From: Thermodesulfobacteriota bacterium
GTDB lineage: Bacteria; Desulfobacterota; Binatia; Bin18
Direction: 5' to 3'
Assembly (NCBI GenBank): GCA_964291405.2
Contig: OZ219926.1
Span: 1,184,001 to 1,248,000, forward strand
Length of the DNA: 64,000 nt
Under the pieces are notes generated by a model. It ran no database searches. It was not told where the DNA came from and was given only the letters and a program-made list of their open reading frames with translations. A program made the position numbers and the translations under genes. Below, in pieces: positions 16,088 to 64,000 of the stretch. Every line of letters begins with the position of its first letter. Within the stretch, counting starts at the first letter, position 1.

Positions 16088-16277
16088 TTCTTCCTGATTG
16101 CCTCTCTCTACAAACGCAACGCTGCATTGCTTGAGGACTAGGGGTCAGGTCTTGCATTTGCCCCCTCGCGAGAAACGACACCCCCAGAAGATTGGGCTGC
16201 ATTGATCAAACACAGAGCTGACCCTGTAGAATGCGGGAGATACTGCCACCCTTAAAGGAAGCGTGCGGAGGGACACG

Positions 16278-16460
16278 ATGAACCACCGACAAATCGTTGA
16301 GGCAAAGCTTTTAGAAGTGGGGATCAAACTCAGTAACGATGACCTTGAGCAGCTCACTACGGCCTATGCAGCGTTGCTCGAATGGGAATCTGTCGTGCAG
16401 GGCATGGTGCGACCGGAGACAGAACCCGCCTTGACCTTTAAGGCAGCAGTGGAGGATTAA
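16278..16460 (+). CDS. small amidase partner protein (GatC/AtzG-like)
   Basis: 60 aa, helical, C-terminal EPALTF; GGAGG RBS; 3 nt before the amidase. Confidence 0.7.
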   Translation: MNHRQIVEAKLLEVGIKLSNDDLEQLTTAYAALLEWESVVQGMVRPETEPALTFKAAVED

Positions 16461-20367: not shown

Positions 20368-21654
20368 ATGGCGTCATATTCAAGGACAGCACGTCAGACG
20401 AGGGACGCGATGCAAGACAGTACAGACACACACGTCAATGGCAAACGCTGGACGCTCGACCACCCAGAGCTCGGAACCGGACCTCTTCCCATCGCGCCCT
20501 ATCTTTCCGCAGAGTATTTTGAGCAGGAGCGCGAGAAAATTTTTACCCGCACCTGGATGTGTACGGGCAAAAAAGTCGAAGAAATTCCGCAGCCGGGCGA
20601 CTATCTGGTGCTGGATATTGCGGTCGGCAAAACCTCGGTCCTCCTCGTCCGGGGCAAAGACGGCCGGGTGCGCGGGTTTCACAACGTGTGTAAACATCGT
20701 GGTAATCGACTGGCCTGGAACGACCGTGGCGCGTGCGGGGCCGGGTTGACGTGTCGCTTCCACGGCTGGACCTATGCCGCGGACGGCCGCCTGATCGGGG
20801 TGCCGGAAGAAGATATGTTCTTTGACTTTGACAAACGGGACTACGGCCTGAGTCCGATTGCCACGGATGTCTGGGAAGGCTTTATCTTTATCAACCTCGA
20901 TCCCGACCCGCCGGAAACGCTGCACCAGTATTTAGGTGAAGTGGTTGACCTGCTGCGCGGCTATGCGTTCGACCGCCTGCCGCTGAGTTGGTCGTATACG
21001 GCCGAGCAGAAGTGCAACTGGCGGATTCTGCGCGACTCACAGCTCGAGTTCTATCACGGCAAAGCGCTGCATCAGCAGTTCGCCGGCAAGGTGATGATAA
21101 ATAAGCAGCAGCCGTCCTGCCACGTCCTCGACGCCAAACTCTTTCGTCGCCACAGCATGATGTCGTTTTACGGCGACCGCCGGAATACCCAACGCACGCC
21201 CATGGAGCTGTTGATGGCCCAATTCGGGGCCAGCTTCAAAACCTTTCCCAGTGCGCGGGATATGGACCGCTGGCCCCTGGGGGTCAATCCCACGCGCAGC
21301 AGACAGTGGTTCTTTGATATTTATTATATCTTTCCCAATTTTCATCTGGTGATTCTGAGTCCCTTTCTGTTTGTCGCCCATACCATGTTGCCGGAGACGG
21401 TGAATCGCTCGACCTGGAACGCGCGGGGCTATTTCCCGCAGCCCACGACTGCCGCAGAGACGGTGACGCGCGAATATAATAAATGCCTGGCGCGGGACGT
21501 GTGGCTGGAAGACGGCAGTACCCTGGAAAACACCCAGCGCGGGATCGAGTCGGGCGTCCTCGGCCAGTATCCGGTGCAGGACCAGGAACTACTGATCCGC
21601 CACGCCCATAAGGTGGCGGAAGAACTGCTCGCCGGCGACGGGCAAGCGGGGTGA
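20368..21654 (+). CDS. Rieske ring-hydroxylating oxygenase alpha subunit ('type B'); start may be 20410
   Basis: CKHRG...CRFHGW; DSQLEFYHGKALH; paralog of 51421-52638. Confidence 0.92.
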   Translation: MASYSRTARQTRDAMQDSTDTHVNGKRWTLDHPELGTGPLPIAPYLSAEYFEQEREKIFTRTWMCTGKKVEEIPQPGDYLVLDIAVGKTSVLLVRGKDGRVRGFHNVCKHRGNRLAWNDRGACGAGLTCRFHGWTYAADGRLIGVPEEDMFFDFDKRDYGLSPIATDVWEGFIFINLDPDPPETLHQYLGEVVDLLRGYAFDRLPLSWSYTAEQKCNWRILRDSQLEFYHGKALHQQFAGKVMINKQQPSCHVLDAKLFRRHSMMSFYGDRRNTQRTPMELLMAQFGASFKTFPSARDMDRWPLGVNPTRSRQWFFDIYYIFPNFHLVILSPFLFVAHTMLPETVNRSTWNARGYFPQPTTAAETVTREYNKCLARDVWLEDGSTLENTQRGIESGVLGQYPVQDQELLIRHAHKVAEELLAGDGQAG

Positions 21655-21657
21655 GGG

Positions 21658-22008
21658 ATGTCCGCTACGAGCCTGCCCGAGGCGTTCGCCGACCTTGAGC
21701 CGCTGGCCGCGGTCTGGGCGCTGGCGACCGAAACCGAGCGCAACCAGCAGCGCCTCAGCAGCACCATGGCGCAGATTCAAGCCTTGTACGACACCCTGCT
21801 GCCCCGCATGGAGGCCGTCCTCACCTATCTGAGTCAATTCCCACCAGAGCCGCCAGACGCGCTGCCCCAAGAGGCCCGGCGGCTCTTATACCTGGCCCTG
21901 GCCATGGCCGAAATCACAACTGCCGTGGAACTCCATCAACAGCCCAGCGTACCCGCCGGTTTCGATCCGCAGCGCTTTATTCCCGACCACGAGCGAACGA
22001 AACGATAG
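21658..22008 (+). CDS. conserved small protein coupled to Rieske type B
   Basis: LPxxFxDLEP..WAL..E..R motif; clear paralog at 51073-51417 in the same context. Confidence 0.8.
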   Translation: MSATSLPEAFADLEPLAAVWALATETERNQQRLSSTMAQIQALYDTLLPRMEAVLTYLSQFPPEPPDALPQEARRLLYLALAMAEITTAVELHQQPSVPAGFDPQRFIPDHERTKR

Positions 22009-23065: not shown

Positions 23066-23361
23066 TTAATCGGTCGGTTCGTTCTCAAAACCAATCCGCT
23101 TCATATTGTACGTAATCATATTATGCACAGCCGCTTCATATCTGGAGAACGGCCCAGGCCGATAGGCTTGTGATTTAAAGCCCCGCTGTAAGGATTGGAC
23201 CATACCGACATCTTCCCCCAGAACCGTATGTATGAACTCCTCATAGATCGCCACTTTTTCCTGAAAATCTTGCTGGGCAAGTAGATGTAGCCTGGTAGGT
23301 GCCGAGCTTGCGGCCGCGGCGGGAGCGTATACTCGTGTTGCTGTGCCTGCTGTGTACCCAT
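23066..23361 (-). pseudogene. internally deleted Rieske type A oxygenase
   Basis: N-terminus QARHLPGYIY fused out of frame to C-terminus DFQEKVAIYEEFIHTVLGEDVGMVQSLQRGFKSQAYRPGPFSRYEAAVHN; both halves match 48026-49153. Confidence 0.88.
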
Positions 23362-45281: not shown

Positions 45282-46220
45282 ATGCTCGATATGCTCGACA
45301 ACCCTGTTCCGTGGCCCGACGGCGCGCGCTGCGCAGCATCCATCACGTTCGACATGGATACGGACAGCGCCCTGCACCTGTCGCATGCCGACGCCTACAA
45401 ACGAGTGGCCGCCCTGTCGTGGTTACGCTACGACGAGGTCGCGGTGCCGCGGATCGTGAAGCTGTTTAACCACTATAATATCAAGGGCACCTTTTTCGTA
45501 CCGGGCTGGTGCGTTGAACGCTATCCGGCCACGGTCGAGCCGATTGTCGCCAGCGGCCACGAACTGGCCTATCACGGCTATCTGCACGAGAACCCCATGG
45601 ACCAGACCCGCGAGGGCGAGCGCTACTGGCTGGAGCGCAGCATTGAGGCGATCGAACGATGCAGCGGCAAACGACCGGCAGGCGGCCGGGCGCCGTATTA
45701 CAACTACTCGCCTCACTCCACCGGGCTGCTGGCCCAGGCCGGCTTTGTGTACGATTCGAGCCTCATGGCTGACAGCCAGCCCTACGTCATGCGCGCGCCC
45801 GAGGGCGAGGTCATCGAATTGCCGACCGACTGGGCCATGGACGACTGGCCGCAATATGCGCACAGTCCGGACTTTCGGTATCTGATGCCCACCCGCGCGC
45901 CGGACAAAGCCATGGAAATTTTCATGGCGGAGTTCGAGGCGGCTTATGAATTCGGCGGCCTGTGGGTCACGGTCTGGCATCCGTTTGTGACCGGGCGGCT
46001 GGCCCGCCTCGCCGAAGTGGCCAAGATGATAGAGGCGATACAAAACCGGGGCGACGTATGGTTTGCCACCATGGAGGACATCGCCCTGCACGTGCGGCGC
46101 TGTATCGCCGACGGGAGCTATACACCCCGCATTGTGTCCATGCCCTATTATGAGGAACCAATCCCGGAATTGACCGAGGGATTTCCCGCGGGCCTGGAGC
46201 TCAGAAAGCCGAGCGGTTAG
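45282..46220 (+). CDS. polysaccharide deacetylase family (HpPgdA-like)
   Basis: ITFDMD, TFFVPG, HELAYHGYLHE, DDWPQY, WHPF. Confidence 0.9.
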   Translation: MLDMLDNPVPWPDGARCAASITFDMDTDSALHLSHADAYKRVAALSWLRYDEVAVPRIVKLFNHYNIKGTFFVPGWCVERYPATVEPIVASGHELAYHGYLHENPMDQTREGERYWLERSIEAIERCSGKRPAGGRAPYYNYSPHSTGLLAQAGFVYDSSLMADSQPYVMRAPEGEVIELPTDWAMDDWPQYAHSPDFRYLMPTRAPDKAMEIFMAEFEAAYEFGGLWVTVWHPFVTGRLARLAEVAKMIEAIQNRGDVWFATMEDIALHVRRCIADGSYTPRIVSMPYYEEPIPELTEGFPAGLELRKPSG

Positions 46221-47626
46221 GTCGGACGCCGTGTATGCCAGGTCGTGCTCTGCTCGTAGGCATACGCCAGGCGCAGGACCGTCGCTTCCTCAAATGGCCG
46301 TCCGACAATTTGGAGCCCGACCGGCAGACCGTCTTGTGTAAACCCGCACGGCACTGAAATGGCGGGCAGGCCGGTCATATTGAACGGTCGAGTTGCCCGA
46401 GCGATATGGGCGGCAACGGGGAATTCCTTGTCGCCTATGGTGACGGTCGGCTGGTCTATCCTGCTAGCCGCCAGGACGGTTGTCGGCGTCACCAACGCGT
46501 TGACCTGGCCGAGCAGGTCAAGCATCTCCTGGCGTAACAGCGACCGGAAGCGTTGGGCCTTGAGATATTGCGCGGCCTGCACGCAAGCGCCGAGCAACAG
46601 CCGGGTGCGCACGTCAGCGCCATAGTCCTGGCTGCGAGTTTGCGCAGTCCGGGCATGAATCTCGTACGCCTCCGCCGCAATGATAGCGGTCGAGCTGGCA
46701 ATCACATGCTGAATGCTGGGGATGGAGACGGCTTCGACTGTCGCCCCCAAGTCAGACAGATGCTGTATGGCGGCCTGCACGCTCTCCCGGACTGCCGGCT
46801 CAATATCGTCAAAAAAATACTCCTGCGGCACACCGAGACGGAGCCCTCGGATGTCCTCCTTCAGGGCCGCCGTATAATCCGGCACCGCCGCCGTGCTGGC
46901 GGTCGGGTCGTTGGGGTCGGGGCCGGCGATGGCGTGCAGAAGTATGGCAGCATCGGCAACCGTTCTGACCATAGGGCCGACATGATCGCACGAATGGCTC
47001 AGCGGATAGACCCCGAACCGACTCACCCGCCCATACGTCGGTTTGAGACCCACGATGCCGCTGAGCGAGGCCGGGATACGGACCGAACCACCCGTATCTG
47101 TCCCGAGCGTCCCCATGGCCAGTCCGGCCGCCATGGCCACCGCCGAGCCGCCGCTCGATCCACCGGGAAGACGCGTGTGGTCCCACGGGTTGCGGGGGGT
47201 GCCGTAGTGCGGGTTGAGCGAGGTCCCGCCCCAGGCGAACTCGTGCATATTGAGTTTCCCCAGCAGAACCGTGCCGGCCTGCCTGAGTCGGGTAACAACC
47301 GTGGCATCGCTGTCCGCGATATGGTCGGCCATGATTTTTGAGCCGCAGGTCATGCGCACGCCCTTGACCGCAAACAGGTCCTTGAGCGCGATGGGAATGC
47401 CGTGGAGCGGACCTCGATATTGCCCGTGCGTAATTTCCTGTTCCGCGCTACGCGCCGCGGCCAGCGCTCCATCGCCGAGGATAGTAAGATATGCCAGGTA
47501 TTCGTCGTTCAGCCGCTCAATCCGGTCAAGATAAGCCTGGGCTACTTCTACGGGTGAGACTTCTTTCTTTTGGATGAGAGGCGCTAACTCGGCAATGCTC
47601 GTAAAGGCCAACGCTTCAGTCTTCAT
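46217..47626 (-). CDS. amidase signature family
   Basis: PLHGIPIALKD, GGSSGGS, GTDTGGSVR. Confidence 0.94.
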   Translation of the reverse strand: MKTEALAFTSIAELAPLIQKKEVSPVEVAQAYLDRIERLNDEYLAYLTILGDGALAAARSAEQEITHGQYRGPLHGIPIALKDLFAVKGVRMTCGSKIMADHIADSDATVVTRLRQAGTVLLGKLNMHEFAWGGTSLNPHYGTPRNPWDHTRLPGGSSGGSAVAMAAGLAMGTLGTDTGGSVRIPASLSGIVGLKPTYGRVSRFGVYPLSHSCDHVGPMVRTVADAAILLHAIAGPDPNDPTASTAAVPDYTAALKEDIRGLRLGVPQEYFFDDIEPAVRESVQAAIQHLSDLGATVEAVSIPSIQHVIASSTAIIAAEAYEIHARTAQTRSQDYGADVRTRLLLGACVQAAQYLKAQRFRSLLRQEMLDLLGQVNALVTPTTVLAASRIDQPTVTIGDKEFPVAAHIARATRPFNMTGLPAISVPCGFTQDGLPVGLQIVGRPFEEATVLRLAYAYEQSTTWHTRRPT

Positions 47627-47819
47627 GGCGTTCGCCCTCCGACATGACAAAACGTACCGCCGGCTCTATGTGGCTGAGGTTCAGCGCGTCCAGTGCGTCC
47701 AGGCCCGCGGACAATTGCACATACAGCGTGGTCAGCTCTTCCAGAGCATCTTCGCTCAGCGGTTCCGCGAGTTTGTCTCGGAGAAGAGCAGCTACGAGTT
47801 CCCGATCTCTCATGTCCAT
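47616..47819 (-). CDS. small amidase partner protein (GatC/AtzG-like)
   Basis: 67 aa, EPAVRF motif, AGGAGG RBS, overlaps the amidase start. Confidence 0.72.
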   Translation of the reverse strand: MDMRDRELVAALLRDKLAEPLSEDALEELTTLYVQLSAGLDALDALNLSHIEPAVRFVMSEGERHED

Positions 47820-48025
47820 GTTTGCCTCCTTCGGAAGCTGTTCATATACCACGTCTATCACGTACGACGCTTGATCAGACCTTGTCCCTTGACTTCTCAA
47901 GAGCGGCAGCACTAGAAGAGGGGACACGGAGAATTTGCAAAATACCGCCTTCGCCACTCTGCCCGCAAGACAAGTCAGATCCGAGAGGGAGAACTGGGAT
48001 TCTTTCAAAAGGGAGGGCAAAACGT

Positions 48026-49153
48026 ATGGCAACAGCAGCAACGGACTATGCGCCTCTCAGAGTCCCCTTACCCCAAGCGCGTCACCTTCCCGGATATTTC
48101 TATACCTCACCCGAAATCTACGCCTTGGAGAAAGAAAAAATCTTTCGCAAAGAATGGCTGTGTGTGGGTAGAGAGGAGGAGATCGAGCGACCCGGAGACT
48201 ATCTGACGTTTCGGGTTGCCGATGAGCCCCTGCTTGTCTGTCGGGACGAGCATGGCCAGCTCAACGCCTTCTACAACGTGTGTCGCCACCGCGGGACCGA
48301 GGTCGCTTGTGGACGGGGAAATGCCAAGAGTTTCAGTTGTCCCTATCACGCCTGGACCTATAACCTGAAAGGCCGCTTGGTCGGTGCCCCGCATACCAAG
48401 GAGATCGAGAATTTTCAGTTCTCCGATTTCAGCCTCGTGCCGTTACGCATCGACACCTGGGCCGGGTTCGTGTTTGTCAGTTTTGAGTCGCACCCGATCA
48501 GTTTGACCGAGTTTTTAGGTGACTTTCCTGAAGTGTACGCACCCTACCGATTTGAAGAATTACAGGTGGCTGACACGATTGTTTCAGAACTCGATTGCAA
48601 CTGGAAGTTCGCGGTTGAAAACCTGGTCGATACCTATCATGTGGCAGCGCTTCACGGGGAGTCGTTCGGCGCCTATCAACCACTGGACACCTATGAGTTT
48701 CAACTGACCAAGGGCGGCTATCATAGTCAATTTAAGGGCGGGACGATCACACCTGACGGCAAATCGCTCTTCGGACCTTTCCCCTGGCTTCCAAAGGAAT
48801 ATCTCCATGGCGGGTATTCGAGTCACCTGCGACCGAATCTGGCCTTTTTTCCGCGATTCGACTTCCACTCTTTTATTACGTGTTGGCCACTTGAGACCGA
48901 GCGATGTGTGTCCATCACCTATCTGCTGTTCCCAAAACAGCACTTTGAGTTGCCCGACTTTCAAAACCGTTGTCAGGTGTATGTCGATTTCTATAAGGCC
49001 ATTCTGGACGAGGACAAGAGCATGATTCTGTCTCTCCAGAAGGGGATGAAGTCCCGGGCGTTTCAGCCCGGACCGATGTCCAGATTTGAAACAGCCATTC
49101 ACAACGTAGCAAACCATTACCTGGATTGCCTGTACGGCGATGCCGAGCACTAA
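48026..49153 (+). CDS. Rieske oxygenase alpha subunit ('type A')
   Basis: CRHRG...CPYHAW; ENLVDTYHVAALH; paralog of 786-1931. Confidence 0.93.
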   Translation: MATAATDYAPLRVPLPQARHLPGYFYTSPEIYALEKEKIFRKEWLCVGREEEIERPGDYLTFRVADEPLLVCRDEHGQLNAFYNVCRHRGTEVACGRGNAKSFSCPYHAWTYNLKGRLVGAPHTKEIENFQFSDFSLVPLRIDTWAGFVFVSFESHPISLTEFLGDFPEVYAPYRFEELQVADTIVSELDCNWKFAVENLVDTYHVAALHGESFGAYQPLDTYEFQLTKGGYHSQFKGGTITPDGKSLFGPFPWLPKEYLHGGYSSHLRPNLAFFPRFDFHSFITCWPLETERCVSITYLLFPKQHFELPDFQNRCQVYVDFYKAILDEDKSMILSLQKGMKSRAFQPGPMSRFETAIHNVANHYLDCLYGDAEH

Positions 49154-49164
49154 GGAGGTGGGCT

Positions 49165-50187
49165 ATGCTATCCAATCTGGGTCCGGAGTTGGCCCATGCG
49201 GCAGAGGTCATGACCAGAGATGTCCTGCTCATAAAGCCGGGCGAGACCGTGCTGATTACGGCAGATACCGCCTCGGATATGAACGCGGTCGACGCGATTC
49301 AAAACGCCGCGCATCGACTCGATGCAAAAGTCGCTGTTCTCATCTCACCGCAGTTGCCTTTGCACGGCGGCTTTGCCGAGCCGTATATTACCGAGCCGGT
49401 GAGATCGGCGATAAAAAGCTGCGACGTGTGGATCGAGCTCAACTGGCCCTATATGGCGGGCTCTCAGGCATACGATGAGGCGATGGAAGGCGGACGGGTC
49501 CGCTACTACCTCTCGGTCGGTCTGACCGGAGAGGCCCTGGTGAGGCTGTTCGGGAAATCGGATTTGGATACCGTCTTCGCAGTCACGGACGCTTTCCACG
49601 CCCAGTTGGAGAAGGGGAAACAGTGTCGGATGACCAACTCGCTTGGGTCCGATGTGACCTTCACGATTGGAGATCCCATCACGATCGGCTTGTGTCGAGC
49701 CGATGGGGTCGGTTGCTTTGGCCTGCCGGGAGCAGTGGCCATCATGCCCCAGGAGGAGTCGGTTCAGGGCGTGATCAAACTGGACGCGATCTTTCACGAA
49801 TACTATGCGCTCACCCAGTCGGAGCCTATCACCCTGACCGTGGACGGGAAGATCAGAGAGGTCAGCGGTGGATCGTCTGAGGTCCGCATTCTCGACCGAG
49901 CTCTCAGGCGGGCCGGTGGCGGCGAATATGGCTATGTCATCCACTTTACCTGCGGCATCCATCCAGCCGCCCGATTCACCGGCAACTGCTTTGTCGAGGA
50001 TCAGCGGGTGATGGGAAACAACGCCATCGGCTTGGGCTTGCCTTTCTGGGTACCGGGAGGCGGAGAAAACCATCCCGACGCGGTCATGGCCAAACAGTCC
50101 ATCTGGCTGGAGGGTGAACAGATTGTGAAAGATGGTCTGATAGTCGGACCGCCCTCTCTGGCAGAGGTGGCGGTGGACCTCGCGTAA
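49165..50187 (+). CDS. NicX-like / aminopeptidase (M29)-fold protein
   Basis: KPGETVLITADT, IHFTCG, GGGENHPD; paralog of 22010-23053. Confidence 0.7.
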   Translation: MLSNLGPELAHAAEVMTRDVLLIKPGETVLITADTASDMNAVDAIQNAAHRLDAKVAVLISPQLPLHGGFAEPYITEPVRSAIKSCDVWIELNWPYMAGSQAYDEAMEGGRVRYYLSVGLTGEALVRLFGKSDLDTVFAVTDAFHAQLEKGKQCRMTNSLGSDVTFTIGDPITIGLCRADGVGCFGLPGAVAIMPQEESVQGVIKLDAIFHEYYALTQSEPITLTVDGKIREVSGGSSEVRILDRALRRAGGGEYGYVIHFTCGIHPAARFTGNCFVEDQRVMGNNAIGLGLPFWVPGGGENHPDAVMAKQSIWLEGEQIVKDGLIVGPPSLAEVAVDLA

Positions 50188-50255
50188 AACTTTGGCCCAA
50201 CAGCGAAACAGGCTCACCGGTCTTCGAGGCCGAACAAAATGAGGAGGAAACATAT

Positions 50256-51056
50256 ATGCCGCGTGCACGGGTAAACGGAGTCGAGCTCGCGTATAATTTG
50301 GAAGGATCCGGAGAGGCCCTGGTCTTGCTCCACGGCGGACAAACAGACCAAAGCGTCTATGCCGGCATCCTGCCCACACTCACAAGCCGATTTCGGGTGC
50401 TGAACTTCGACCAACGAGGCTCGGGAGAGAGCGAAAAGCCGGACATCCCCTACAGCATGGCTCTACTGGCGGACGATACCGCCGCGTTGATGGATCATGT
50501 CGGCCTTTCTTCAGCGCATATTGTTGGCACGTCCATGGGCGGCATGCTGGCGCAAGAATTTGGGCTGCGTCATCCAAGCAAGACGCGCTCTCTGGTTATC
50601 GGCTGCGCGGTCGCGGGCGGGCCGTATCCGGTGAGTCTGGGGAGTGAGGAGTCAGAAAAGGCGTTTTCCACCGAAGCCCTCTCCGCGGAAGAGCGGGCGA
50701 GAGCGCTGGCCGAGTCGATTTTCACCCAGGGTTATATAGAGACCCACCCGGAAATCATCCCCGCACTCATTGAGGCTCGGCGCAACAAGCCTATTGACCC
50801 TGTGGCGCTGGGTCATCGTCTCGACGCTGCCTACGCCCATGATACCTACGACCGCTTACCGCATATCTCGTGCCCGACTCTCGTCATTGTTGGCAAGGAT
50901 GATGCAATTATTCCTTGGGAGAACTCTCGGATTATTGCCGAGCGCATCCCTGGCGCAGAACTGGTTGTCTTGGAACCCGCCGGACATGGTTTCTGGCTGG
51001 AGCGACCAGACGAGACGTGTCAAACGATTCTAGAGTTCTTAGGGGAAGGCGGGTGA
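50256..51056 (+). CDS. alpha/beta fold hydrolase
   Basis: LLHG, DQRGSG, GTSMGG, AGHG. Confidence 0.92.
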   Translation: MPRARVNGVELAYNLEGSGEALVLLHGGQTDQSVYAGILPTLTSRFRVLNFDQRGSGESEKPDIPYSMALLADDTAALMDHVGLSSAHIVGTSMGGMLAQEFGLRHPSKTRSLVIGCAVAGGPYPVSLGSEESEKAFSTEALSAEERARALAESIFTQGYIETHPEIIPALIEARRNKPIDPVALGHRLDAAYAHDTYDRLPHISCPTLVIVGKDDAIIPWENSRIIAERIPGAELVVLEPAGHGFWLERPDETCQTILEFLGEGG

Positions 51057-51072
51057 CATCGAGAGCCGTGTA

Positions 51073-51417
51073 TCAAAACCTCGGTTCGTGTCTCGGCACA
51101 AACCGAGTGGACTCAAAACCGTCAACCACCTCCGGCTGCCCGAACAATTCTACTGCTGGCGCAATCTCCGCCAAGGATAATGTCAGAAAAAATAGCCGCC
51201 GCACTTCCCCAGGCATTGCATCAGGGGGAAATTGCTTCAGATATTCAAGGATGACCTCCATGCGGGGAAAGATCGCATCATAAAAGGTCTGGAGCTCTTC
51301 CCTGGTGCTTGACAGACGCCTTCTATTGCGCGCTCTTTCTTCCGCCAGAGCCCACGCACTGACAAAAGGCTCGAGGTCGGTAAACTGACTCGGCAACAAA
51401 CCGTTAGGCATGGGCAC
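51073..51417 (-). CDS. conserved small protein coupled to Rieske type B
   Basis: Paralog of 21658-22008; 3 nt after the Rieske stop. Confidence 0.8.
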   Translation of the reverse strand: MPMPNGLLPSQFTDLEPFVSAWALAEERARNRRRLSSTREELQTFYDAIFPRMEVILEYLKQFPPDAMPGEVRRLFFLTLSLAEIAPAVELFGQPEVVDGFESTRFVPRHEPRF

Positions 51418-51420
51418 CCC

Positions 51421-52638
51421 CTATTGTCCGCTACCGCCTATAAAGTCTTCCGCCACCTTATTCGCGTGTCTGATCATGACCTCCTGATCTTGCAGGGGAG
51501 AGTGCGTTATTGCCCCGGAAGTGAGCCCTCTTTGCACGTTTTCCAGGGTGCTGCCGTCTTCCAGCCACACGTCACGAGTGACGCATCTCGTATATTCCTG
51601 GCTAAACCATTGGGCGGTGTCTTCTGCCTTGGGTAAATACAACCGGGCCTCCCAAAGCGACCGATCGACCGTTATCGGCCACATATAGTGGGTGAGGCAG
51701 AACCCACCAAACAGTAAGAAGTGGAAATTCGGGAAGATATAATAGAGATCAAAAGACCAATTCGGACTTCTGGTCGGATTGAGCACCTGCGGGGGCAGTC
51801 GCTCAAGAAAGGAGCCGGTTGCCTCCGCACTGAGCATCGCCCCGAATCGGGCAGCGAGGGCTTCTACGGGCGTGGGCGTATGGTTCTGATTGCCGTAGCC
51901 CGAGAGCATGCTGTGGCGGTCATAGAGTTTGACGTCGAGGGTATGAACCGCGGGATTTTCTCTATTGGTGAAAAAATCCGGAATCGTATGCGCGTGCAGG
52001 CTCTTGGCGTGATACGCCTCGAGCTGGGAGTCTCGTGCAACTCTCCAGTTGCACTGCAGCTCTGCCTTATAGGAGTAACAGGCCGGTAGCTCCGCAAAGG
52101 GAAATTCTCTCAATACCGTCGCCACCTCGCCCAGATACTGCTGCAAGGTTTCCTGTGGGTTGGGATCCAGATGGATGAAGATAAACCCGCCACAGATGTC
52201 CGTGGTAACCGGAGTCAGAGCATATTCTTTTTTCTCGAAATCAAAGAACATCTCCTCTTCCGGCACCCCGACCAGCTGGCCGTCTGGCGCATAGGTCCAG
52301 CCGTGGAATTTGCACGTCAATTTCTGACACGAACCCGAGCCATGCCAAACTAGCTTATTCCCTCGATGTTTACACACATTATGGAAAGCCCGCACGACTC
52401 CGTCCTGTCCGCGAACCACAAGAATCGAGGTGCTGCCCACGGCAAGGTCCTGAACAAAGTAGTCTCCGGCCTGCGGAATTTCTTCTACTCTTCCGACGTT
52501 GAGCCACACCCGCCGAAAGATCCGCTCACGTTCCAACTCAAAATATTCCGGCGAAATATAGGGCTCAATCGGCGCTGGGCCGGTTCCCAGCTCAGGATAC
52601 TGTGCTGTCCAGCGTGGATTGTTGGTTACAGGCTCCAT
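51421..52638 (-). CDS. Rieske ring-hydroxylating oxygenase alpha subunit ('type B')
   Basis: CKHRG...CKFHGW; DSQLEAYHAKSLH; RDVWLED. Confidence 0.93.
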   Translation of the reverse strand: MEPVTNNPRWTAQYPELGTGPAPIEPYISPEYFELERERIFRRVWLNVGRVEEIPQAGDYFVQDLAVGSTSILVVRGQDGVVRAFHNVCKHRGNKLVWHGSGSCQKLTCKFHGWTYAPDGQLVGVPEEEMFFDFEKKEYALTPVTTDICGGFIFIHLDPNPQETLQQYLGEVATVLREFPFAELPACYSYKAELQCNWRVARDSQLEAYHAKSLHAHTIPDFFTNRENPAVHTLDVKLYDRHSMLSGYGNQNHTPTPVEALAARFGAMLSAEATGSFLERLPPQVLNPTRSPNWSFDLYYIFPNFHFLLFGGFCLTHYMWPITVDRSLWEARLYLPKAEDTAQWFSQEYTRCVTRDVWLEDGSTLENVQRGLTSGAITHSPLQDQEVMIRHANKVAEDFIGGSGQ

Positions 52639-52686
52639 GCTCTCCCTCCTTATCTGAACGTGTTTTGAGGGGAACCTATGGCCAGG

Positions 52687-53082
52687 CTAGAGCAGGTCTG
52701 CCCCGGCCTGAGCACATTCCTCGTCCTGCTGACCCGTCCCCCCACCAACACCGCACCCGCCCTCAAGGACTCCACCGCGCATGATCGCAACGCCCCCCTG
52801 GCTGGCGATCATGTGGCCTCCTTCTGCGGCAACAATCCCGCGCACAATCGGGCTGTCGGCCATCTGTTGGAGGGCGCCACTGGGCCGGGCAAAGCCGGCT
52901 GAAGCGACGGCCTTCCCCTGAGAGCCGTAGACACCGGCCCATAGGGCATCGTCCATACGGTTGAAGGCCATGAGGCGCCCCCCAGCGTCACACACGGCCA
53001 CGCTGATCTTGATGTTAAGCTCCTGAGCCTTGGCTATGGCCCCGGCAACAATGCGGTTCGCTTCCTCTAATGTCAGTGCCAT
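52687..53082 (-). CDS. GlcG/HbpS family heme-binding protein
   Basis: VAVCDAGG, RMD, GKA, GGCGVGG, QDEECA. Confidence 0.9.
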   Translation of the reverse strand: MALTLEEANRIVAGAIAKAQELNIKISVAVCDAGGRLMAFNRMDDALWAGVYGSQGKAVASAGFARPSGALQQMADSPIVRGIVAAEGGHMIASQGGVAIMRGGVLEGGCGVGGGTGQQDEECAQAGADLL

Positions 53083-53204
53083 ACGGTAAACCCTCCTCTC
53101 TCAGTATAAAATTGAACTTGCAAATTCCGGGTAATTTTGCAAACGATGCAGAGGAAAAAGATAGCAGTGTTTGGCCGAGCAACCTACAGGAAAGGAGCAG
53201 TCAC

Positions 53205-53918
53205 ATGAGGGCAGAGAGTCTGGAATATAAAGACGGGGATGTCACGCTCAAGGGATTTGTGGCGCTGGATGACCAGAGCAACCATAAGCGACCCGGCATT
53301 CTGGTGATGCCCGAGGCGTTTGGATTGGGCAAGCAGGCCAAGGACCGTGCTCTGCGGCTGGCCTCACTCGGCTATGCCGCACTGGCGGGCGACCCGTATG
53401 GCAACGGCCTGGAGGTCAGCGATCTTCAGGAAGCGATTAAACACGCAGGGGCCATACGTGAGGATAACACCAAGTTTCGCCAGCGCATCCGCGCCGGACT
53501 CGACGCGCTGACGGCGCTGCCCCAGGTTGATACCGACCGGCTTGTGGTCATGGGCTATTGCATGGGAGGGTCCTGTTCTCTGGAGATGGCGCGGGACGGC
53601 GCACCACTCAAGGGCGTGGTCTCATTCCACGGCGCCTTGGAAACGCAGAGTCCAGCAGAGCCGGGTAAGGTCCAGGCAAAGGTCCTGGTGTGCCACGGCG
53701 CGGATGATCCCTTTGTTCCGGTCGAACATGTCACTGCCTTTGAAGAGGAGATGACCAAGGCCGGGGTGGACTGGCAGGTCATCAGCTACGGCGGCACGGT
53801 GCATAGCTTTACGAACCCGGAGGCCGACGGCTCCATAGAAGGCATTTGCTACAATAAACAGGCGGATGCGCGCTCGTGGCAGGCGATGCAGGCCTTCTTT
53901 GACGAGATTTTCGCCTAG
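53205..53918 (+). CDS. dienelactone hydrolase family
   Basis: GYCMGG, SFHG, HGADDP, HSFTNP. Confidence 0.93.
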   Translation: MRAESLEYKDGDVTLKGFVALDDQSNHKRPGILVMPEAFGLGKQAKDRALRLASLGYAALAGDPYGNGLEVSDLQEAIKHAGAIREDNTKFRQRIRAGLDALTALPQVDTDRLVVMGYCMGGSCSLEMARDGAPLKGVVSFHGALETQSPAEPGKVQAKVLVCHGADDPFVPVEHVTAFEEEMTKAGVDWQVISYGGTVHSFTNPEADGSIEGICYNKQADARSWQAMQAFFDEIFA

Positions 53919-59884: not shown

Positions 59885-62800
59885 ATGCCTGGAACGAACA
59901 CAAAACTGACAACCGCAGTCGAAGACTACCTGACCGACCTCCGCCGGATACGGGCCTCGGGCGGGGCGACCGGCGAGCGGTCGTACTATCCGGCGCTGTC
60001 CGCCCTGCTCAACGCCGTGGGTACAACCCTGAAACCCAAGACGTTCTGCGTGGCCGAACTCGCAGCCCAAGGGGCGGGCCATCCCGACTTCGGGCTCTAC
60101 ACGGCCAAGCAAGTGCAGAAAGGCCAGCCGAAAGAAGGCCAAGTCCCGGAACGCGGTGTGGTCGAAGTAAAATCCGCCAGTGATAATGCCTGGCTGACCT
60201 CAGAGTCGGCCCAAGTCAGCCGCTATTGGGACCGCTACCGTCTCGTGCTGGTCACGAACACGCGCGACTTCGTCCTGTTGGGTGAAGACCCTGCCGGACA
60301 GCCGGCCACGCTCGAAACCTTTCGGCTGGCTGACAATGCCGAAGACTTCGCTCGGCGTCTGGAGCACTCCCGCACCTTTGCCCGCGATATCGGCGCTGGG
60401 CTCGGAGAATATCTCTGCCGCGCCCTGTCCCACCGGGCCGCCCTGACCGAGCCCAAAGACTTGGCATGGTTGCTGGCCTCGTATGCCCGTGACGCCTTAG
60501 CCCGGATTGCGACTGCCGACGACGCCCCACAACTCACCGCCCTGCGTACAGCCCTGGAGGAAGCGCTCGGAGTCCAATTCAAGGGCGACAAGGGCACGCG
60601 CTTTTTCTATTCAACTCTCGTCCAGACCTTATTCTACGGCGTCTTCTCCGCCTGGGTGTTGTGGGCGCGGCAAGTCCCGTCGCCACGGGGCACGTTCAAC
60701 TGGCATGAAGCCGTCTGGCATCTCCGCGCACCAGTACTACGCGCCTTGTTCCAACAGATTTCCGACCCCGGGCGTCTACAACCACTCGGTCTGGTCGAAG
60801 TCCTGGACTGGACCGCGGCGGCCCTCAACCGCGTGGACCGCGTGGCCTTCTTCGCCCGTTTCAACGAGGGCGAAGCCGTGCCCTATTTCTACGAACCCTT
60901 CCTCGAAGCCTTTGACCCCGACCTGCGCAAACAACTCGGCGTCTGGTACACCCCCGCCGAAGTCGTCCGCTACATGGTCGCCCGCGTGGATAAGGCGTTG
61001 AAGGATGACCTGAACATCCCGGACGGGTTGGCTGCGGACAATGTTTACGTCCTGGACCCGTGTTGCGGTACCGGGGCGTATCTGGCCGAAGTGTTACGCC
61101 GGATTGCTGAGAACCTTACCGGCAAAGGCATGGGCGCGCTCGCTGGCGCGCGGGTCAAACAGGCGGCCATCAACCGGGTGTTCGGCTTCGAGATCATGCC
61201 TGCCCCGTTTGTGGTGGCCCACCTGCAAGTCGGCCTGACCATGCAGGACTTGGACGCCCCCCTGGCGGACGACGGCAATGAGCGCCCCGGTGTCTTCCTC
61301 ACCAACGCCCTGACCGGCTGGGAGCCCCACACCACCAAACCCCTCCCCTTCCCCGAACTCGAAGAAGAACGCGACCGGGCCGAGCGGGTCAAGCAGAACA
61401 CCCCGATTCTGGTGATTCTGGGTAACCCGCCCTACAACGGCTTTGCCGGCATGGCCGTAGACGAAGAGCGGGTATTGTCGGAAGCCTACCGCGTGACCAA
61501 GCGGGTACGGCGGCCTGAAGGCCAGGGGTTGAACGATCTGTACGTGCGTTTCTTCCGTATGGCGGAACGCCGGATTGCCGAGAAGACCGGGCAAGGGGTG
61601 GTGTGTTTCATCTCCAACTATTCGTGGTTGGATGGGTTGTCGTTTACCGGGATGAGAGAGCGGTATCTGGAAGTGTTTAACGCCATTCGGATTGATTGTC
61701 TCAACGGCGATAAATACAAGACCGGCAAGGTTGCACCGGACGGGACACCCGACCCGAGTATTTTTTCCACGCCCAGTGACCCGGTAGGGATACAGGTGGG
61801 GACGGCTATTGCGACGCTGGTACGCAAGGCCAACCATGCCCCGGCTGAAACTATTGGCTTTCGGCATCTGTGGGGGCAGACGAAACGGGAGGAACTGTTA
61901 GAGACAGCGGAGGCAGAGCCAGCGACGCTCTACGACGCTATCGAGCCCGTACTGCCGCTGGGGTTGCCATTGGTCCGAACGGCGGTCAGTAAGGACTATT
62001 TCGACTGGCCAGCGCTGCCTGAACTGTTCCCAGCCTCATTTCCTGGAGTGCAGACTGGTCGTGATACGTTTCTCGTTGATATCGATCTTGACCGGCTCAA
62101 GGAGCGTGTCAACGATTACTTCAATACATCGTTGTGGCATGAAGAGATCGCGCGGCGCTATCCGCGTGTGATGACGGACACGGCACGGTTCGATGCACGG
62201 AGAGTGCGCGACACGCTGCTCACGCGTGGCGGTCCAGACGAGGCTGGCTTCGTCCGCTACGCCTATCGACCGTTCGATAATCGGTGGCTGTATTGGGAAG
62301 CAGAAACGAAGCTGCTACGCGAGAAAAGTCCCCGCTACCCGCGGCAAGTGTTCGAGGGGAATAAGTTTATTGAAGCACGCGAGCGGGAAACCAAAGAAGA
62401 CTTTTCACGGGGAACTCTGGTTCGAGGCTTGGCTGATAATTTTGGCAATGGGTTTTCGAGCTTCTTCCCTATGTGGCTCTACGACGACGGGATCAGAAGC
62501 AACGGCGACAGCACACGCCGCGTCAATCTTTCGGGAAAGGCCCAACGATGGCTCAATCATCTTGGCATGGGCGTGGAGGACTTGTTCCATCATATCTTAG
62601 CCGTCCTGCACGACCCCAATTACCGTGAAGCCAACGCCGACGCTCTGCGCATGGACTGGCCGCGTATCCCACTCCCCGGCTGGCCCCTTCCTGGGAGCGC
62701 GGGCATCTTGCCCGCCTCCGACGCAACGAATGCACTCGCCCAATCCGTAGCGCGTGGACGTGAGCTCGCCGCCCTGCTTGACCCGGATACGCCCGTGCCC

Positions 62801-63229
62801 GGCGTGACAACCGGAACCCTCCGCCCGAAGGTCGCTGCTATTGCCGTACCCGCTACGGTGGACGGACGGAACATGATCGGAGACGATTTCGCACTGACCG
62901 CTGGGTGGGGACACTACGGCACGGGTGATGCCGTTATGCCCGGCCAAGGGCGGGTGGTCGAACGCGATTACACGGCGGACGAACGCACTGCTTTGGGGGA
63001 TGCTCCCGGCGTGCTTGGTCAGACCACGTTCGACATTTACCTGAACGGCAACGCCTACTGGCGCAATGTTCCGGCTGCTGTCTGGCGCTACAAGCTGGGC
63101 GGCTATCAGGTGCTCAAGAAATGGTTGTCATATCGGGAACGGGCCGTGCTGGGGCGGGCGCTGTTGCCGGAGGAGGTGTGGTATTTTGCGGAGGTGGCGC
63201 GGCGGATTGGGGCGATATTGGATCGATAA
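59885..63229 (+). CDS. single-chain restriction-modification enzyme (PD-(D/E)xK + N6-MTase + type ISP-like specificity domain; no helicase)
   Basis: HPDFG...VEVK...QVSRY; GVWYTP, DPCCGTG, GNPPY; YAYRPFD and YKLGGYQVLKKWLSYR. Confidence 0.88.
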   Translation: MPGTNTKLTTAVEDYLTDLRRIRASGGATGERSYYPALSALLNAVGTTLKPKTFCVAELAAQGAGHPDFGLYTAKQVQKGQPKEGQVPERGVVEVKSASDNAWLTSESAQVSRYWDRYRLVLVTNTRDFVLLGEDPAGQPATLETFRLADNAEDFARRLEHSRTFARDIGAGLGEYLCRALSHRAALTEPKDLAWLLASYARDALARIATADDAPQLTALRTALEEALGVQFKGDKGTRFFYSTLVQTLFYGVFSAWVLWARQVPSPRGTFNWHEAVWHLRAPVLRALFQQISDPGRLQPLGLVEVLDWTAAALNRVDRVAFFARFNEGEAVPYFYEPFLEAFDPDLRKQLGVWYTPAEVVRYMVARVDKALKDDLNIPDGLAADNVYVLDPCCGTGAYLAEVLRRIAENLTGKGMGALAGARVKQAAINRVFGFEIMPAPFVVAHLQVGLTMQDLDAPLADDGNERPGVFLTNALTGWEPHTTKPLPFPELEEERDRAERVKQNTPILVILGNPPYNGFAGMAVDEERVLSEAYRVTKRVRRPEGQGLNDLYVRFFRMAERRIAEKTGQGVVCFISNYSWLDGLSFTGMRERYLEVFNAIRIDCLNGDKYKTGKVAPDGTPDPSIFSTPSDPVGIQVGTAIATLVRKANHAPAETIGFRHLWGQTKREELLETAEAEPATLYDAIEPVLPLGLPLVRTAVSKDYFDWPALPELFPASFPGVQTGRDTFLVDIDLDRLKERVNDYFNTSLWHEEIARRYPRVMTDTARFDARRVRDTLLTRGGPDEAGFVRYAYRPFDNRWLYWEAETKLLREKSPRYPRQVFEGNKFIEARERETKEDFSRGTLVRGLADNFGNGFSSFFPMWLYDDGIRSNGDSTRRVNLSGKAQRWLNHLGMGVEDLFHHILAVLHDPNYREANADALRMDWPRIPLPGWPLPGSAGILPASDATNALAQSVARGRELAALLDPDTPVPGVTTGTLRPKVAAIAVPATVDGRNMIGDDFALTAGWGHYGTGDAVMPGQGRVVERDYTADERTALGDAPGVLGQTTFDIYLNGNAYWRNVPAAVWRYKLGGYQVLKKWLSYRERAVLGRALLPEEVWYFAEVARRIGAILDR
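62694..62719. repeat. REP-like hairpin embedded in frame in the RM gene
   Basis: GGAG-C-GCGGGCA-TCT-TGCCCGC-CTCC, translated as GSAGILPAS. Confidence 0.55.
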
Positions 63230-63247
63230 CAAGCTATATCGTTCTTA

Positions 63248-64000
63248 TTAACGAAACGACTCGGGTCTTACGATCTCGCACATAAAGCGAATAGCGTCTT
63301 CGACGCGAGTTTTTATCGAGGCCAATTGCTGTGGCGAGAATATTCCGGCAGGACCATGCGCGCCAGAATTTAGTTCTTTGAAGAGGATAACGACGTTATC
63401 AATGTTAGCGTTAATGAAGTCTTCAAGTTCGTTATTTGCACTATCGTTTCGATCAAGGCAGTAATGGATTTTGGCGCGGCGGGTGGGAGTCCCTTTATCT
63501 GTGGTTTGGCAGTTAGGAAAGCGAGCAAAAACATCGTCATCTGGTGCCTTGGTATCAAGAATCTCCGTAATGATCTCTCGGGTACTGATACAAAAATGGC
63601 GGGCAGCATCGGGATTCTCAGGATTGAGTGCGTAGATAGCACCATGCCAGCGGCGGTCCAAATCCGGGGAGATGTGTGCTAACCCATCGGCGATCAGAGT
63701 GTTCTTGAGATCATCATCAGAAACTTGGGAATCAGCAGTATCGTCTAGGAGGTCGTTGAGGACGGTTACGCCGTTGGTCGCTTCCTGTTCGGCAAGATCC
63801 GAAAGGAAGGGGTTGGCTCCAGCAGTGTCCAACCGCTTGTACGCAGTGGAGAGTGTGGATACTGATTTGGAGAGCGCGGTATAGCGGACGGTGTTGGTCT
63901 GCTGAGCGAAGCGTTGTAGTGCAGATTGTAGGCGGGTTCGGTTAGCTCGTACGCGTGCATTGTGGGTGCGTACATCCCGGTTGTAAGCGTCAATCGCCTG
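63248..64000 (-). CDS. predicted pPIWI-associating-nuclease-like protein (5' end outside window)
   Basis: Frame is open to the window edge (QAIDAYNRDVRTHNARVR...); NPDAARHFCISTRE, PTRRAKIHY, ELNSGAH motifs; AT-richer. Confidence 0.6.
   Translation of the reverse strand, partial: QAIDAYNRDVRTHNARVRANRTRLQSALQRFAQQTNTVRYTALSKSVSTLSTAYKRLDTAGANPFLSDLAEQEATNGVTVLNDLLDDTADSQVSDDDLKNTLIADGLAHISPDLDRRWHGAIYALNPENPDAARHFCISTREIITEILDTKAPDDDVFARFPNCQTTDKGTPTRRAKIHYCLDRNDSANNELEDFINANIDNVVILFKELNSGAHGPAGIFSPQQLASIKTRVEDAIRFMCEIVRPESFR

Follow-up and report, generated by a model that had tools for sequence, protein, structure and literature searches.

Two convergent Rieske oxygenase and NicX-like gene modules in a Binatia genome as a candidate N-heterocycle degradation system

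Two convergent modules and their products

The 64-kb stretch of contig OZ219926.1 analysed here (positions 1,184,001 to 1,248,000, from a Thermodesulfobacteriota bacterium of the Binatia; hereafter the window) carries two gene modules in which Rieske-type oxygenases are encoded beside a relative of NicX, the enzyme that cleaves 2,5-dihydroxypyridine to N-formylmaleamate in an Fe(II)- and O2-dependent reaction. NicX reportedly accepts only 2,5-dihydroxypyridine, and ring-opening enzymes known for pyridine-type compounds are few. The layout of both modules (Table 1) is based on an open reading frame (ORF) listing combined with Pfam and NCBIfam scans. In module B, the genes for RieskeA, NicX-like protein B and an alpha/beta-hydrolase converge on those for a small helical protein and a second Rieske protein, RieskeB; in module A, the genes for RieskeB' and small' converge on that for NicX-like protein A, which is preceded by the remnant of RieskeA'. 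A first-pass annotation of this DNA had placed both convergent arrangements where we find them, and in each the genes meet end to end (1 and 15 nt separating the stop codons). The proteins common to the two modules resemble each other far beyond chance (E 4e-137 for the NicX-like pair, 2e-176 for RieskeB and RieskeB', 2e-42 for the small proteins), and no alpha/beta-hydrolase gene adjoins module A. The ATG taken as the start of RieskeA is preceded by a GGGAGGG motif; the listed ORF begins further upstream.

Table 1. Genes of the two modules and of the second amidase locus in the window
Module	Feature	Position	Strand	Remarks
B	Amidase	46217-47650	-	amidase-signature enzyme, GatA/AtzE-like; divergent from RieskeA
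B	67-aa ORF	47616-47819	-	upstream of amidase, overlaps amidase start
B	RieskeA	48026-49153	+	Pfam Rieske + Ring_hydroxyl_A
B	NicX-like protein B, 340 aa	49165-50187	+	start 11 nt past RieskeA stop
B	Alpha/beta-hydrolase	50256-51056	+	Pfam Abhydrolase_1, E 7e-28
B	Small protein, 114 aa	51073-51417	-	helical; no known family
B	RieskeB	51421-52638	-	Pfam Rieske + Ring_hydroxyl_A; stop 3 nt ahead of small-protein gene
A	RieskeB'	20368-21654	+	57% identity to RieskeB
A	Small protein' (small')	21658-22008	+	3 nt past RieskeB'; 54% identity to 51073-51417
A	NicX-like protein A, 347 aa	22010-23053	-	convergent with small'; 53% identity to copy B
A	RieskeA' remnant (pseudogene)	23066-23361	-	retains nt 1-84 and 929-1143 out of 1143 nt; short ORF 23116-23361(-)
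	Second amidase, with 65-aa ORF	16464-17864; 16263-16460	+	~2.5 kb from module A

RieskeA, whose Rieske CxH..CxxH and iron D-x2-H-x4-H motifs are intact, shares 29% identity with RieskeB. The best Protein Data Bank (PDB) match of RieskeA is CntA (6y8j, E 2.7e-47, residues 21-348), as it is for RieskeB, there over the N-terminal half only; CntA is a homotrimer according to the available part of its description. Like the Group V Rieske monooxygenases (CntA, Stc2, GbcA), to which they are similar in size, the two proteins have no adjoining beta-subunit (Ring_hydroxyl_B) gene in the window. They differ from that group in scoring far under the cut-off of GbcA, their best NCBIfam model (188 bits for RieskeA and 141 for RieskeB, cut-off 670), and in missing the Cys-X-X-Cys pair known in some of its members (CntA Cys206/Cys209), which is replaced by T/V in RieskeA (D-T-Y-H-V) and A/A in RieskeB (E-A-Y-H-A). 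The position of the carnitine-binding Tyr203 of CntA is Leu in RieskeA. With the Cys pair absent and Leu at Tyr203, a quaternary-amine substrate is not indicated, and we draw no substrate class from the Rieske proteins; an N-methylpyridinium or other quaternary-amine substrate (trigonelline, homarine) was considered, CntA and GbcA being the closest Rieske relatives, and set aside as unsupported. The available part of a paper on the homarine operon does not mention "Rieske", and our literature searches on trigonelline turned up nothing relevant.

Directly after the RieskeB gene comes that of the small protein, recalling the alpha3beta3 Rieske oxygenases, in which the beta subunit is NTF2-like and ~170 aa long; the RieskeB partner is by contrast a ~110-aa four-helix protein, although its predicted mode of binding also involves the catalytic domain. 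Neither Pfam, Ring_hydroxyl_B included, nor NCBIfam gave it a match, and in the Atlas it falls into unnamed clusters only, with a recognition score under the usual mark. A profile built from it retrieves 1291 cluster representatives, 833 of them at E <= 1e-10, and among the 150 matches listed all are stand-alone proteins of 77-169 aa. The modelled structure is a four-helix bundle (predicted local distance difference test score, pLDDT, 84.8) for which Foldseek returned no fold match in the PDB at E <= 0.001. Predicted as a complex, RieskeB and the small protein reach an interface score (ipSAE) of 0.89, the best of 3 controls reaching 0.05; solved complexes attain the 0.89 mark in 116 of 157 cases and mismatched pairs in 2 of 215, a calibration made approximate by the use of our own alignments. 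At least 84% of contacts were common to the runs, with a partner pLDDT of at least 87. On the RieskeB side the predicted interface comprises residues 187-193, 256-265 and 330-363, including the invariant R355, E360 and D361, and on the other side the conserved SLAEIAPAVE stretch. The small protein is thus predicted by modelling to be an accessory subunit of RieskeB, which itself has 2377 homologues. Four longest-contig sizes (16706, 5537650, 2894 and 2811) are common to the match lists of the two proteins, a hint that they are neighbours outside the loci studied below too.

The amidase of module B is a clear family member (Pfam Amidase, E 1e-132) that scores under the cut-offs of the AtzE-family NCBIfam models (413 and 396 bits against 461 and 426); its best PDB matches are GatA chains (4wj3, E 1e-105), followed by AtzE 6c62 (E 4e-80), and it shares 44% identity with the second amidase. 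Translation probably starts at an ATG ~24 nt inside the listed TTG. The amidase partner invoked by the first-pass annotation does exist as an ORF, preceded by a GGAGG motif 5 nt ahead of its ATG, and a paralogous 65-aa ORF (35% identity, E 3e-6) precedes the second amidase near module A. Both ORFs are without a Pfam or NCBIfam match, so that the 67-aa product, close in length to the ~68-aa AtzG/GatC-like partners, is a candidate small amidase subunit by position only. The alpha/beta-hydrolase reaches 138 bits with the NCBIfam model PcaD (cut-off 256) and is closest in the PDB to the esterase Est1 (6eb3, E 4e-50); we regard it as a candidate deformylase, or other hydrolase, acting on a ring-cleavage product.

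A NicX-family protein with its own signature

Neither NicX-like protein matched in the Pfam/NCBIfam scans, NCBIfam holding no model for them, and single-sequence searches of the PDB with either returned nothing meaningful. When a profile built from 27 sequences for NicX-like protein B was run against 177,635 PDB sequences, the sole match at E <= 10 was NicX of Pseudomonas putida KT2440 (7cn3, E 1.8e-9; orthologues PicD, Hpo and VppE). A word-indexed homologue search gave 816 matches, and all 120 of those listed, including one 98% identical, carry a precomputed assignment to PF26233, labelled "NicX" in the Atlas (Pfam 38.1). The AlphaFold2 model of NicX-like protein B (pLDDT 90.7, predicted template modelling score 0.89) has a two-domain aminopeptidase-T-like fold, for which the best Foldseek matches are the NicX structures 7cn3/7cup (template modelling score, TM, 0.76; E 2e-22), followed by the M29 peptidases PepS, AmpT and AmpS (TM 0.48-0.65, E 1e-10 to 1e-13) and then by CgnB/CgnE. 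Peptidase_M29 (PF02073) gave no Pfam match at E <= 0.01 nor at E <= 1, and no M29 chain occurs among the PDB sequence matches at E <= 10. The product of 49165-50187 is therefore closer to NicX than to the M29 peptidases both by profile and by fold, as the first-pass annotation had proposed, and neither its sequence nor its fold casts it as a di-metal aminopeptidase.

In NicX the iron is held by His265, Ser302, His318 and Asp320, and the substrate is contacted by Leu104/His105, Glu177 and His189, of which Glu177 and His189 bind its O1 atom (PMC7910607, available part). We examined these positions in a MAFFT alignment that set 203 members of the family against a canonical NicX homologue from a Variovorax plasmid. 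H260, H303 and D305 of NicX-like protein B align with NicX H265, H318 and D320, and these ligand positions are invariant in 203/203 relatives; they are the His, His and Asp of the HFxCG and NHPD motifs, which had been reported for the window proteins and are indeed present in both copies. D279 and R281, likewise invariant, align with NicX D291 and R293, and E278 and E301 join D279 as further invariant acidic residues. The His105 position is less diagnostic, being Phe even in the canonical homologue. Against this shared framework the family stands apart from NicX and its canonical homologue in overall identity (20-23%) and in signature motifs of its own (PYxAGS, HFTCGxHP, GLGLPxW and GGGENHPD). 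We predict that NicX-like protein B is a mononuclear Fe(II) ring-cleavage dioxygenase with a 2-His-1-Asp site.

Spread, descent and partial loss of the modules

A scan with the NicX-like profile over one genome per species found 259 relatives, and the best 80 loci, which sort into 21 groups at 80% NicX-like identity, were studied for neighbouring genes within 6 kb by tblastn with the window proteins and gammaproteobacterial representatives. A RieskeA-type gene lies within that distance in 58/80 loci (20/21 groups), and in 50 loci (14 groups) it stands directly upstream of the NicX-like gene on the same strand (<= 250 bp). Other neighbours are less frequent: an alpha/beta-hydrolase in 35 loci (11 groups), an amidase in 27 (9 groups), a Rieske ferredoxin in 15 (4 groups) and a maleate-isomerase-like gene in 13 (3 groups). 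The widely kept unit across these genomes is therefore RieskeA with the NicX-like protein, a pair that ranges over Binatia and the Alpha-, Beta- and Gammaproteobacteria, and its recurrence bears out the linkage claimed from the window. The rest of the proposed module fared otherwise. Only 6/80 loci (1/21 groups) have RieskeB and the small protein next to a NicX-like gene, all six being orthologues of module A, and a hidden Markov model (HMM) of the small protein had no further match in the 80 loci; the four-family layout is accordingly confined here to this one Binatia lineage.

A full cluster of the gammaproteobacterial type was found in a cultured organism, Pseudomaricurvus alkylphenolicus KCTC 32386 (L056), where genes for maleate isomerase, RieskeA, NicX-like protein, ferredoxin reductase, hydrolase and amidase are followed by those for a Rieske ferredoxin, a vicinal oxygen chelate (VOC) protein, RidA and a type III glutamine synthetase. 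Its isomerase resembles the maleate cis-trans isomerase 4fq7 (E 1.5e-79), and such clusters, with hydrolase, amidase, ferredoxin and maleate isomerase, fit a maleamate-type route. The hydrolase usually encoded beside NicX-like genes is MetX-like (NCBIfam PRK07581, 458 bits) and lies within 3 kb in 31/80 loci (7/21 groups). In plasmid 3 of Variovorax sp. SRS16 (L081; NZ_LR594668.1, 7054-18981) the order is NicX-like, RieskeA-type (38.6% identity) and hydrolase, with an M20 peptidase among the neighbours; ~7 kb away lies a canonical NicX (E 1.8e-80 to 7cn3), annotated as "leucyl aminopeptidase", with an alpha/beta-hydrolase and an isochorismatase. A Tn3-family transposase lies upstream. The presence of both clusters on one plasmid argues for different specificities. 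An Agrobacterium sp. T29 plasmid carries NicX-like, hydrolase and nitronate monooxygenase genes in that order, with TctABC transporters. Among the Binatia loci L001-L021, an Amidohydro_2 gene and a luciferase-like monooxygenase gene recur downstream of the NicX-like gene at a distance of ~2-4 kb (the Amidohydro_2 cluster spans 17 loci in 4 groups, and L001 also has an IS1595 transposase directly after the NicX-like gene). Amidohydro_2 is a family of non-oxidative aromatic-acid decarboxylases, and together with the TctABC transporters these genes weakly hint at a carboxylated substrate. HbpS-like genes (42-44% identity to the one beside RieskeB at 52687-53918, where an HbpS/GlcG-like protein of 131 aa and a dienelactone hydrolase are encoded) are also found 4-5 kb ahead of the RieskeA-NicX-like pair in 14/21 group-0 Binatia loci.

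To follow the descent of the two modules we built trees of both members of the pair. The NicX-like tree (both window copies and, after removal of near-identical rows, 49 of the 80 loci) places copy B with a Binatia RieskeA-NicX-like group and L034/L053 (Shimodaira-Hasegawa-like approximate likelihood ratio test, SH-aLRT, 99) and copy A with alphaproteobacterial and gammaproteobacterial clades (82-92). Constraining the module A orthologues to form one clade with both window copies, a grouping named after inspection of the tree, cost 51 log-likelihood units (approximately unbiased, AU, test, p 2.3e-5). The RieskeA tree (36 loci and the four window Rieske proteins, RieskeB set as outgroup on a branch of 2.7 changes per column separating it from all RieskeA-type proteins) largely repeats these groupings, with the exception of L034/L053, unresolved rather than placed with the copy B group; the match between the trees indicates that the pair was inherited together. 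Since the NicX-like copies A and B are not sisters, the modules did not arise by simple duplication, and the RieskeB-small cassette stands convergent to two different NicX-like lineages. Of the earlier description of two diverged copies with the same four families in the same layout, the repeated layout stands (at 53-57% identity), and simple descent of the two as copies of one module does not, the NicX-like genes falling in different clades.

A third RieskeA-type gene in the window (786-1931, 45% identity to RieskeA) groups with the Binatia locus L035; it sits within 3-2897, between an alpha/beta-hydrolase and a polysaccharide-deacetylase-family gene, in a segment that holds no NicX-like gene. 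A paralogue of that deacetylase (25% identity) borders module B at 45282-46220.

Module A has orthologues in six Candidatus Binatia loci (L048, L051, L058, L061, L063 and L065; 89-98% nucleotide identity across aligned segments), all of which have an amidase of the 16464-17864 type alongside; this similarity marks the window itself as Binatia DNA. By blastn against the intact 1143-nt L058 gene, what survives of RieskeA' in the window is nt 1-84 (23361-23281) and nt 929-1143 (23280-23066), joined at 23281|23280 with 844 nt gone and the frame shifted, so that the gene described at first pass as internally deleted is exactly that, a clean 844-bp internal deletion; what remains matches RieskeA at the N terminus alone (17/31 aa). 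L051 retains nt 944-1143 only and L061 nothing, and the gene is intact in L048, L058, L063 and L065. Among the 7 genomes, then, 3 (those of the window, L051 and L061) have lost RieskeA', each with deletion end points of its own. The remaining genes are under purifying selection: against the six orthologous loci the ratio of nonsynonymous to synonymous substitution rates (dN/dS) is 0.054-0.092 for NicX-like', 0.065-0.130 for RieskeB' and 0.069-0.347 for small', and this holds in genome pairs that both lack RieskeA'.

For module B no orthologue was found among the 80 loci (best match 65% identical), including the species-representative genomes that carry module A at ~93% nucleotide identity. Close homologues of its NicX-like, small and RieskeB proteins (91-98% identity) do occur on metagenome contigs, and module B may be strain-variable. 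A recent transfer was considered on the ground of composition and discarded, as the GC3 (GC content at third codon positions) z-scores of +0.3 (NicX-like) to -1.4 (small protein) contain no outlier.

Pathway reading and its alternatives

We lean slightly towards reading both modules as parts of an uncharacterised N-heterocycle pathway with RieskeA and the NicX-family enzyme as its core and RieskeB-small as an extra oxygenase. Computation gave the family and fold of the proteins, the conservation of the ligands, the gene linkage, the agreement of the trees, the deletion in RieskeA' and the predicted contact of RieskeB with the small protein; all chemical steps, the class of substrate and the pairing of oxygenases with the enzymes they supply are inferred. 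RieskeA, with ferredoxin and reductase encoded elsewhere, would hydroxylate a pyridine- or pyridone-type N-heterocycle, maybe a carboxylated one. The NicX-like enzyme would then open the hydroxylated ring with Fe(II) and O2 to give an N-acyl (formyl) unsaturated amide, from which the alpha/beta-hydrolase would take off the acyl group and the amidase, with its ~65-aa partner, would free ammonia; in other genomes a maleate isomerase would complete the route to fumarate. RieskeB and its ~115-aa helical partner would form a two-subunit oxygenase whose additional or alternative hydroxylation feeds the same NicX-like enzyme, which would explain why module A keeps three genes under selection after the loss of RieskeA'.

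A precedent for a Rieske hydroxylase acting ahead of a NicX-type dioxygenase is offered by the pic cluster of Alcaligenes faecalis JQ135, in which, according to the available part of the preprint (bioRxiv 10.1101/530550), the Rieske-type PicB acts ahead of the NicX-type PicD, followed by deformylase, amidase and maleate isomerase. The same source describes PicB as a four-component relative of the AndA/Hca/Bph systems whose oxygenase has both a large and a small subunit, and PicD as 40-60% identical to known 2,5-dihydroxypyridine (2,5-DHP) dioxygenases. RieskeA differs in having no adjoining small-subunit gene, in being closest to CntA and in sharing an operon with the dioxygenase gene. This preprint was the only relevant item in our literature search on Rieske proteins with NicX, dihydroxypyridine dioxygenases or maleamate, and no work was found, supplements aside, on the NicX-like clade or its pairing with a CntA-like Rieske gene; PMC12746152, on riboflavin, was set aside as unrelated to that pairing in its available part.

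Several observations weigh against the proposed pathway. Three positions of the NicX active site are not kept in the 203 relatives: that of Ser302 is always Gly (Leu in the HMMER and Gly in the BLAST alignment, never Ser), that of His189 is always a gap, and that of Glu177 is A, K, G, S, D or T and never E, the HMMER and BLAST alignments concurring on the latter two. The chemistry could therefore differ from that of NicX. No ferredoxin, reductase or maleate isomerase was found in the window (tblastn, E <= 1e-3). The window hydrolase is of another, PcaD/Est1-like subfamily, and the MetX-like enzyme common elsewhere is absent from the window. For the deformylase and amidase steps first suggested, a hydrolase and an amidase with a small upstream ORF are indeed present. 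NicF-type maleamate amidases belong to the isochorismatase family. The module B amidase is of a different family, none of the scanned window ORFs encodes an isochorismatase-type amidase, and it is beside the canonical NicX of L081 that an isochorismatase is annotated. A RieskeA-type gene is missing from 22 loci. Sixteen of these, a single alphaproteobacterial group, have no Rieske gene at all; there the NicX-like gene is accompanied by a divergent hydrolase, a major facilitator superfamily (MFS) transporter, an aldo/keto reductase and a GMC oxidoreductase (in two others, L042 and L060, the contig ends close to the NicX-like gene). With RieskeB-small beside NicX-like genes only in one lineage and in module B, their link rests on two occurrences. 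The neighbourhood counts come from the best 80 of 259 loci, and the AU test from a clade chosen with the tree in view; we count both on this side too.

The strongest alternative is that the NicX-like proteins are diverged isofunctional 2,5-dihydroxypyridine 5,6-dioxygenases within variant nic/pic maleamate pathways whose substrate is already known, for example a pyridine carboxylate or hydroxypyridine. "2,5-Dihydroxypyridine 5,6-dioxygenase" is one of the automatic Joint Genome Institute (JGI) names among the homologues, PF26233 is assigned to them, the His/His/Asp triad is retained, and the genuine maleate isomerase of the gammaproteobacterial clusters implies maleate as an end product. Yet identity to NicX is low, and with the equivalents of Ser302 and of the Glu177/His189 pair missing throughout the family, 2,5-dihydroxypyridine itself is probably not the compound whose ring they open; the co-occurrence of a canonical NicX cluster with a NicX-like/Rieske cluster on the Variovorax plasmid likewise counts against isofunctionality, which we consider unlikely.

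Alternatively, the convergent layout might be functionally meaningless, the RieskeB-small cassette having landed twice beside NicX-like genes while serving another substrate, and module A might be decaying. This would sit well with the 74/80 NicX-like loci that lack RieskeB and the small protein, with the wealth of paralogous oxygenases, hydrolases and CoA-transferases in the window, with a RieskeA' that is a pseudogene here and lost in 2/6 orthologous loci, and with the non-sister relationship of the two NicX-like genes. Against it stand the same convergent junction beside two phylogenetically distinct NicX-like genes and the purifying selection on all three remaining module A genes (dN/dS 0.05-0.35), and we judge it improbable, with the caveat that two occurrences are compatible with chance.

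Quite doubtful, finally, is a non-oxygenase role, in which the NicX-like protein, as a metal-dependent member of the aminopeptidase-T (M29) superfamily, would hydrolyse an amide, lactam or peptide-like product of the Rieske reaction: the fold shared with PepS, AmpT and AmpS, the JGI name "leucyl aminopeptidase (aminopeptidase T)" on some homologues, the hydrolase-rich surroundings (amidase, the M20 peptidase of L081, RidA) and the invariant E278, D279 and E301, which could hold a second metal, speak for it (M29 aminopeptidases have a Glu/Glu/His/His/Asp di-metal site), but Peptidase_M29 is without a match, NicX is the sole PDB sequence match and the top fold match, D279 and R281 are common to the dioxygenase, and the co-inherited pairing with an O2-dependent hydroxylase together with the maleate isomerase context favours ring cleavage.

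We tentatively suggest, with more doubt than confidence, that RieskeA and the NicX-like protein define a widespread uncharacterised pathway in which the NicX fold has acquired a new specificity, with a 2-His-1-Asp site that lacks the Ser ligand and with a different substrate pocket, and that RieskeB with its four-helix partner represents an undescribed two-subunit oxygenase architecture. The dioxygenase would then act not on 2,5-dihydroxypyridine but on another hydroxylated N-heterocycle, perhaps a pyridone of natural organic matter that is carboxylated or N-substituted, and the partner is predicted by the complex model to dock on the RieskeB catalytic domain next to the helix bearing the invariant E360 and D361. 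If so, the known routes for mineralising N-heterocycles (vitamins, alkaloids, osmolytes, pollutants) would grow in number, a mechanistically unusual non-heme iron enzyme would gain a second substrate class, and a well-studied enzyme family would gain a new type of accessory subunit. The NicX sister clade with its own Rieske hydroxylase occurs in several phyla, including the abundant uncultured Binatia; as the NCBI Prokaryotic Genome Annotation Pipeline (PGAP) labels its members "hypothetical protein", the pathway cannot be recognised from those labels. The full cluster of the cultured P. alkylphenolicus KCTC 32386 makes the question directly testable.

The window holds further catabolic paralogues, namely five luciferase-like monooxygenases, four family III CoA-transferases and two Amidohydro_2 proteins, along with three amidase/amidohydrolase genes, HpaB, a Baeyer-Villiger-type flavin-containing monooxygenase (FMO) and a molybdopterin oxidoreductase. 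A scan of 46000-53200 for promoters and terminators gave counts not above those of shuffled sequence, and no RNA genes were detected in the whole window (Rfam gathering thresholds; tRNA scans). The segment 6301-9152 is a low-GC island (GC 0.45-0.50 against ~0.59; GC3 z -2.3 to -3.0) and probably a mobile defence islet; it encodes a GMT-wHTH protein similar to PADLOC PDC-M30A, a DUF5131 protein similar to PDC-M41B/M30B (E 8e-121) and a HEPN protein. At 59885-63832 a type ISP/IIG restriction-modification fusion protein of 1114 aa is encoded beside a predicted pPIWI-associated nuclease of low GC content (Pfam pP_pnuc_1; PADLOC Aga_Nuclease), whose Argonaute partner, if any, would lie past the window end.

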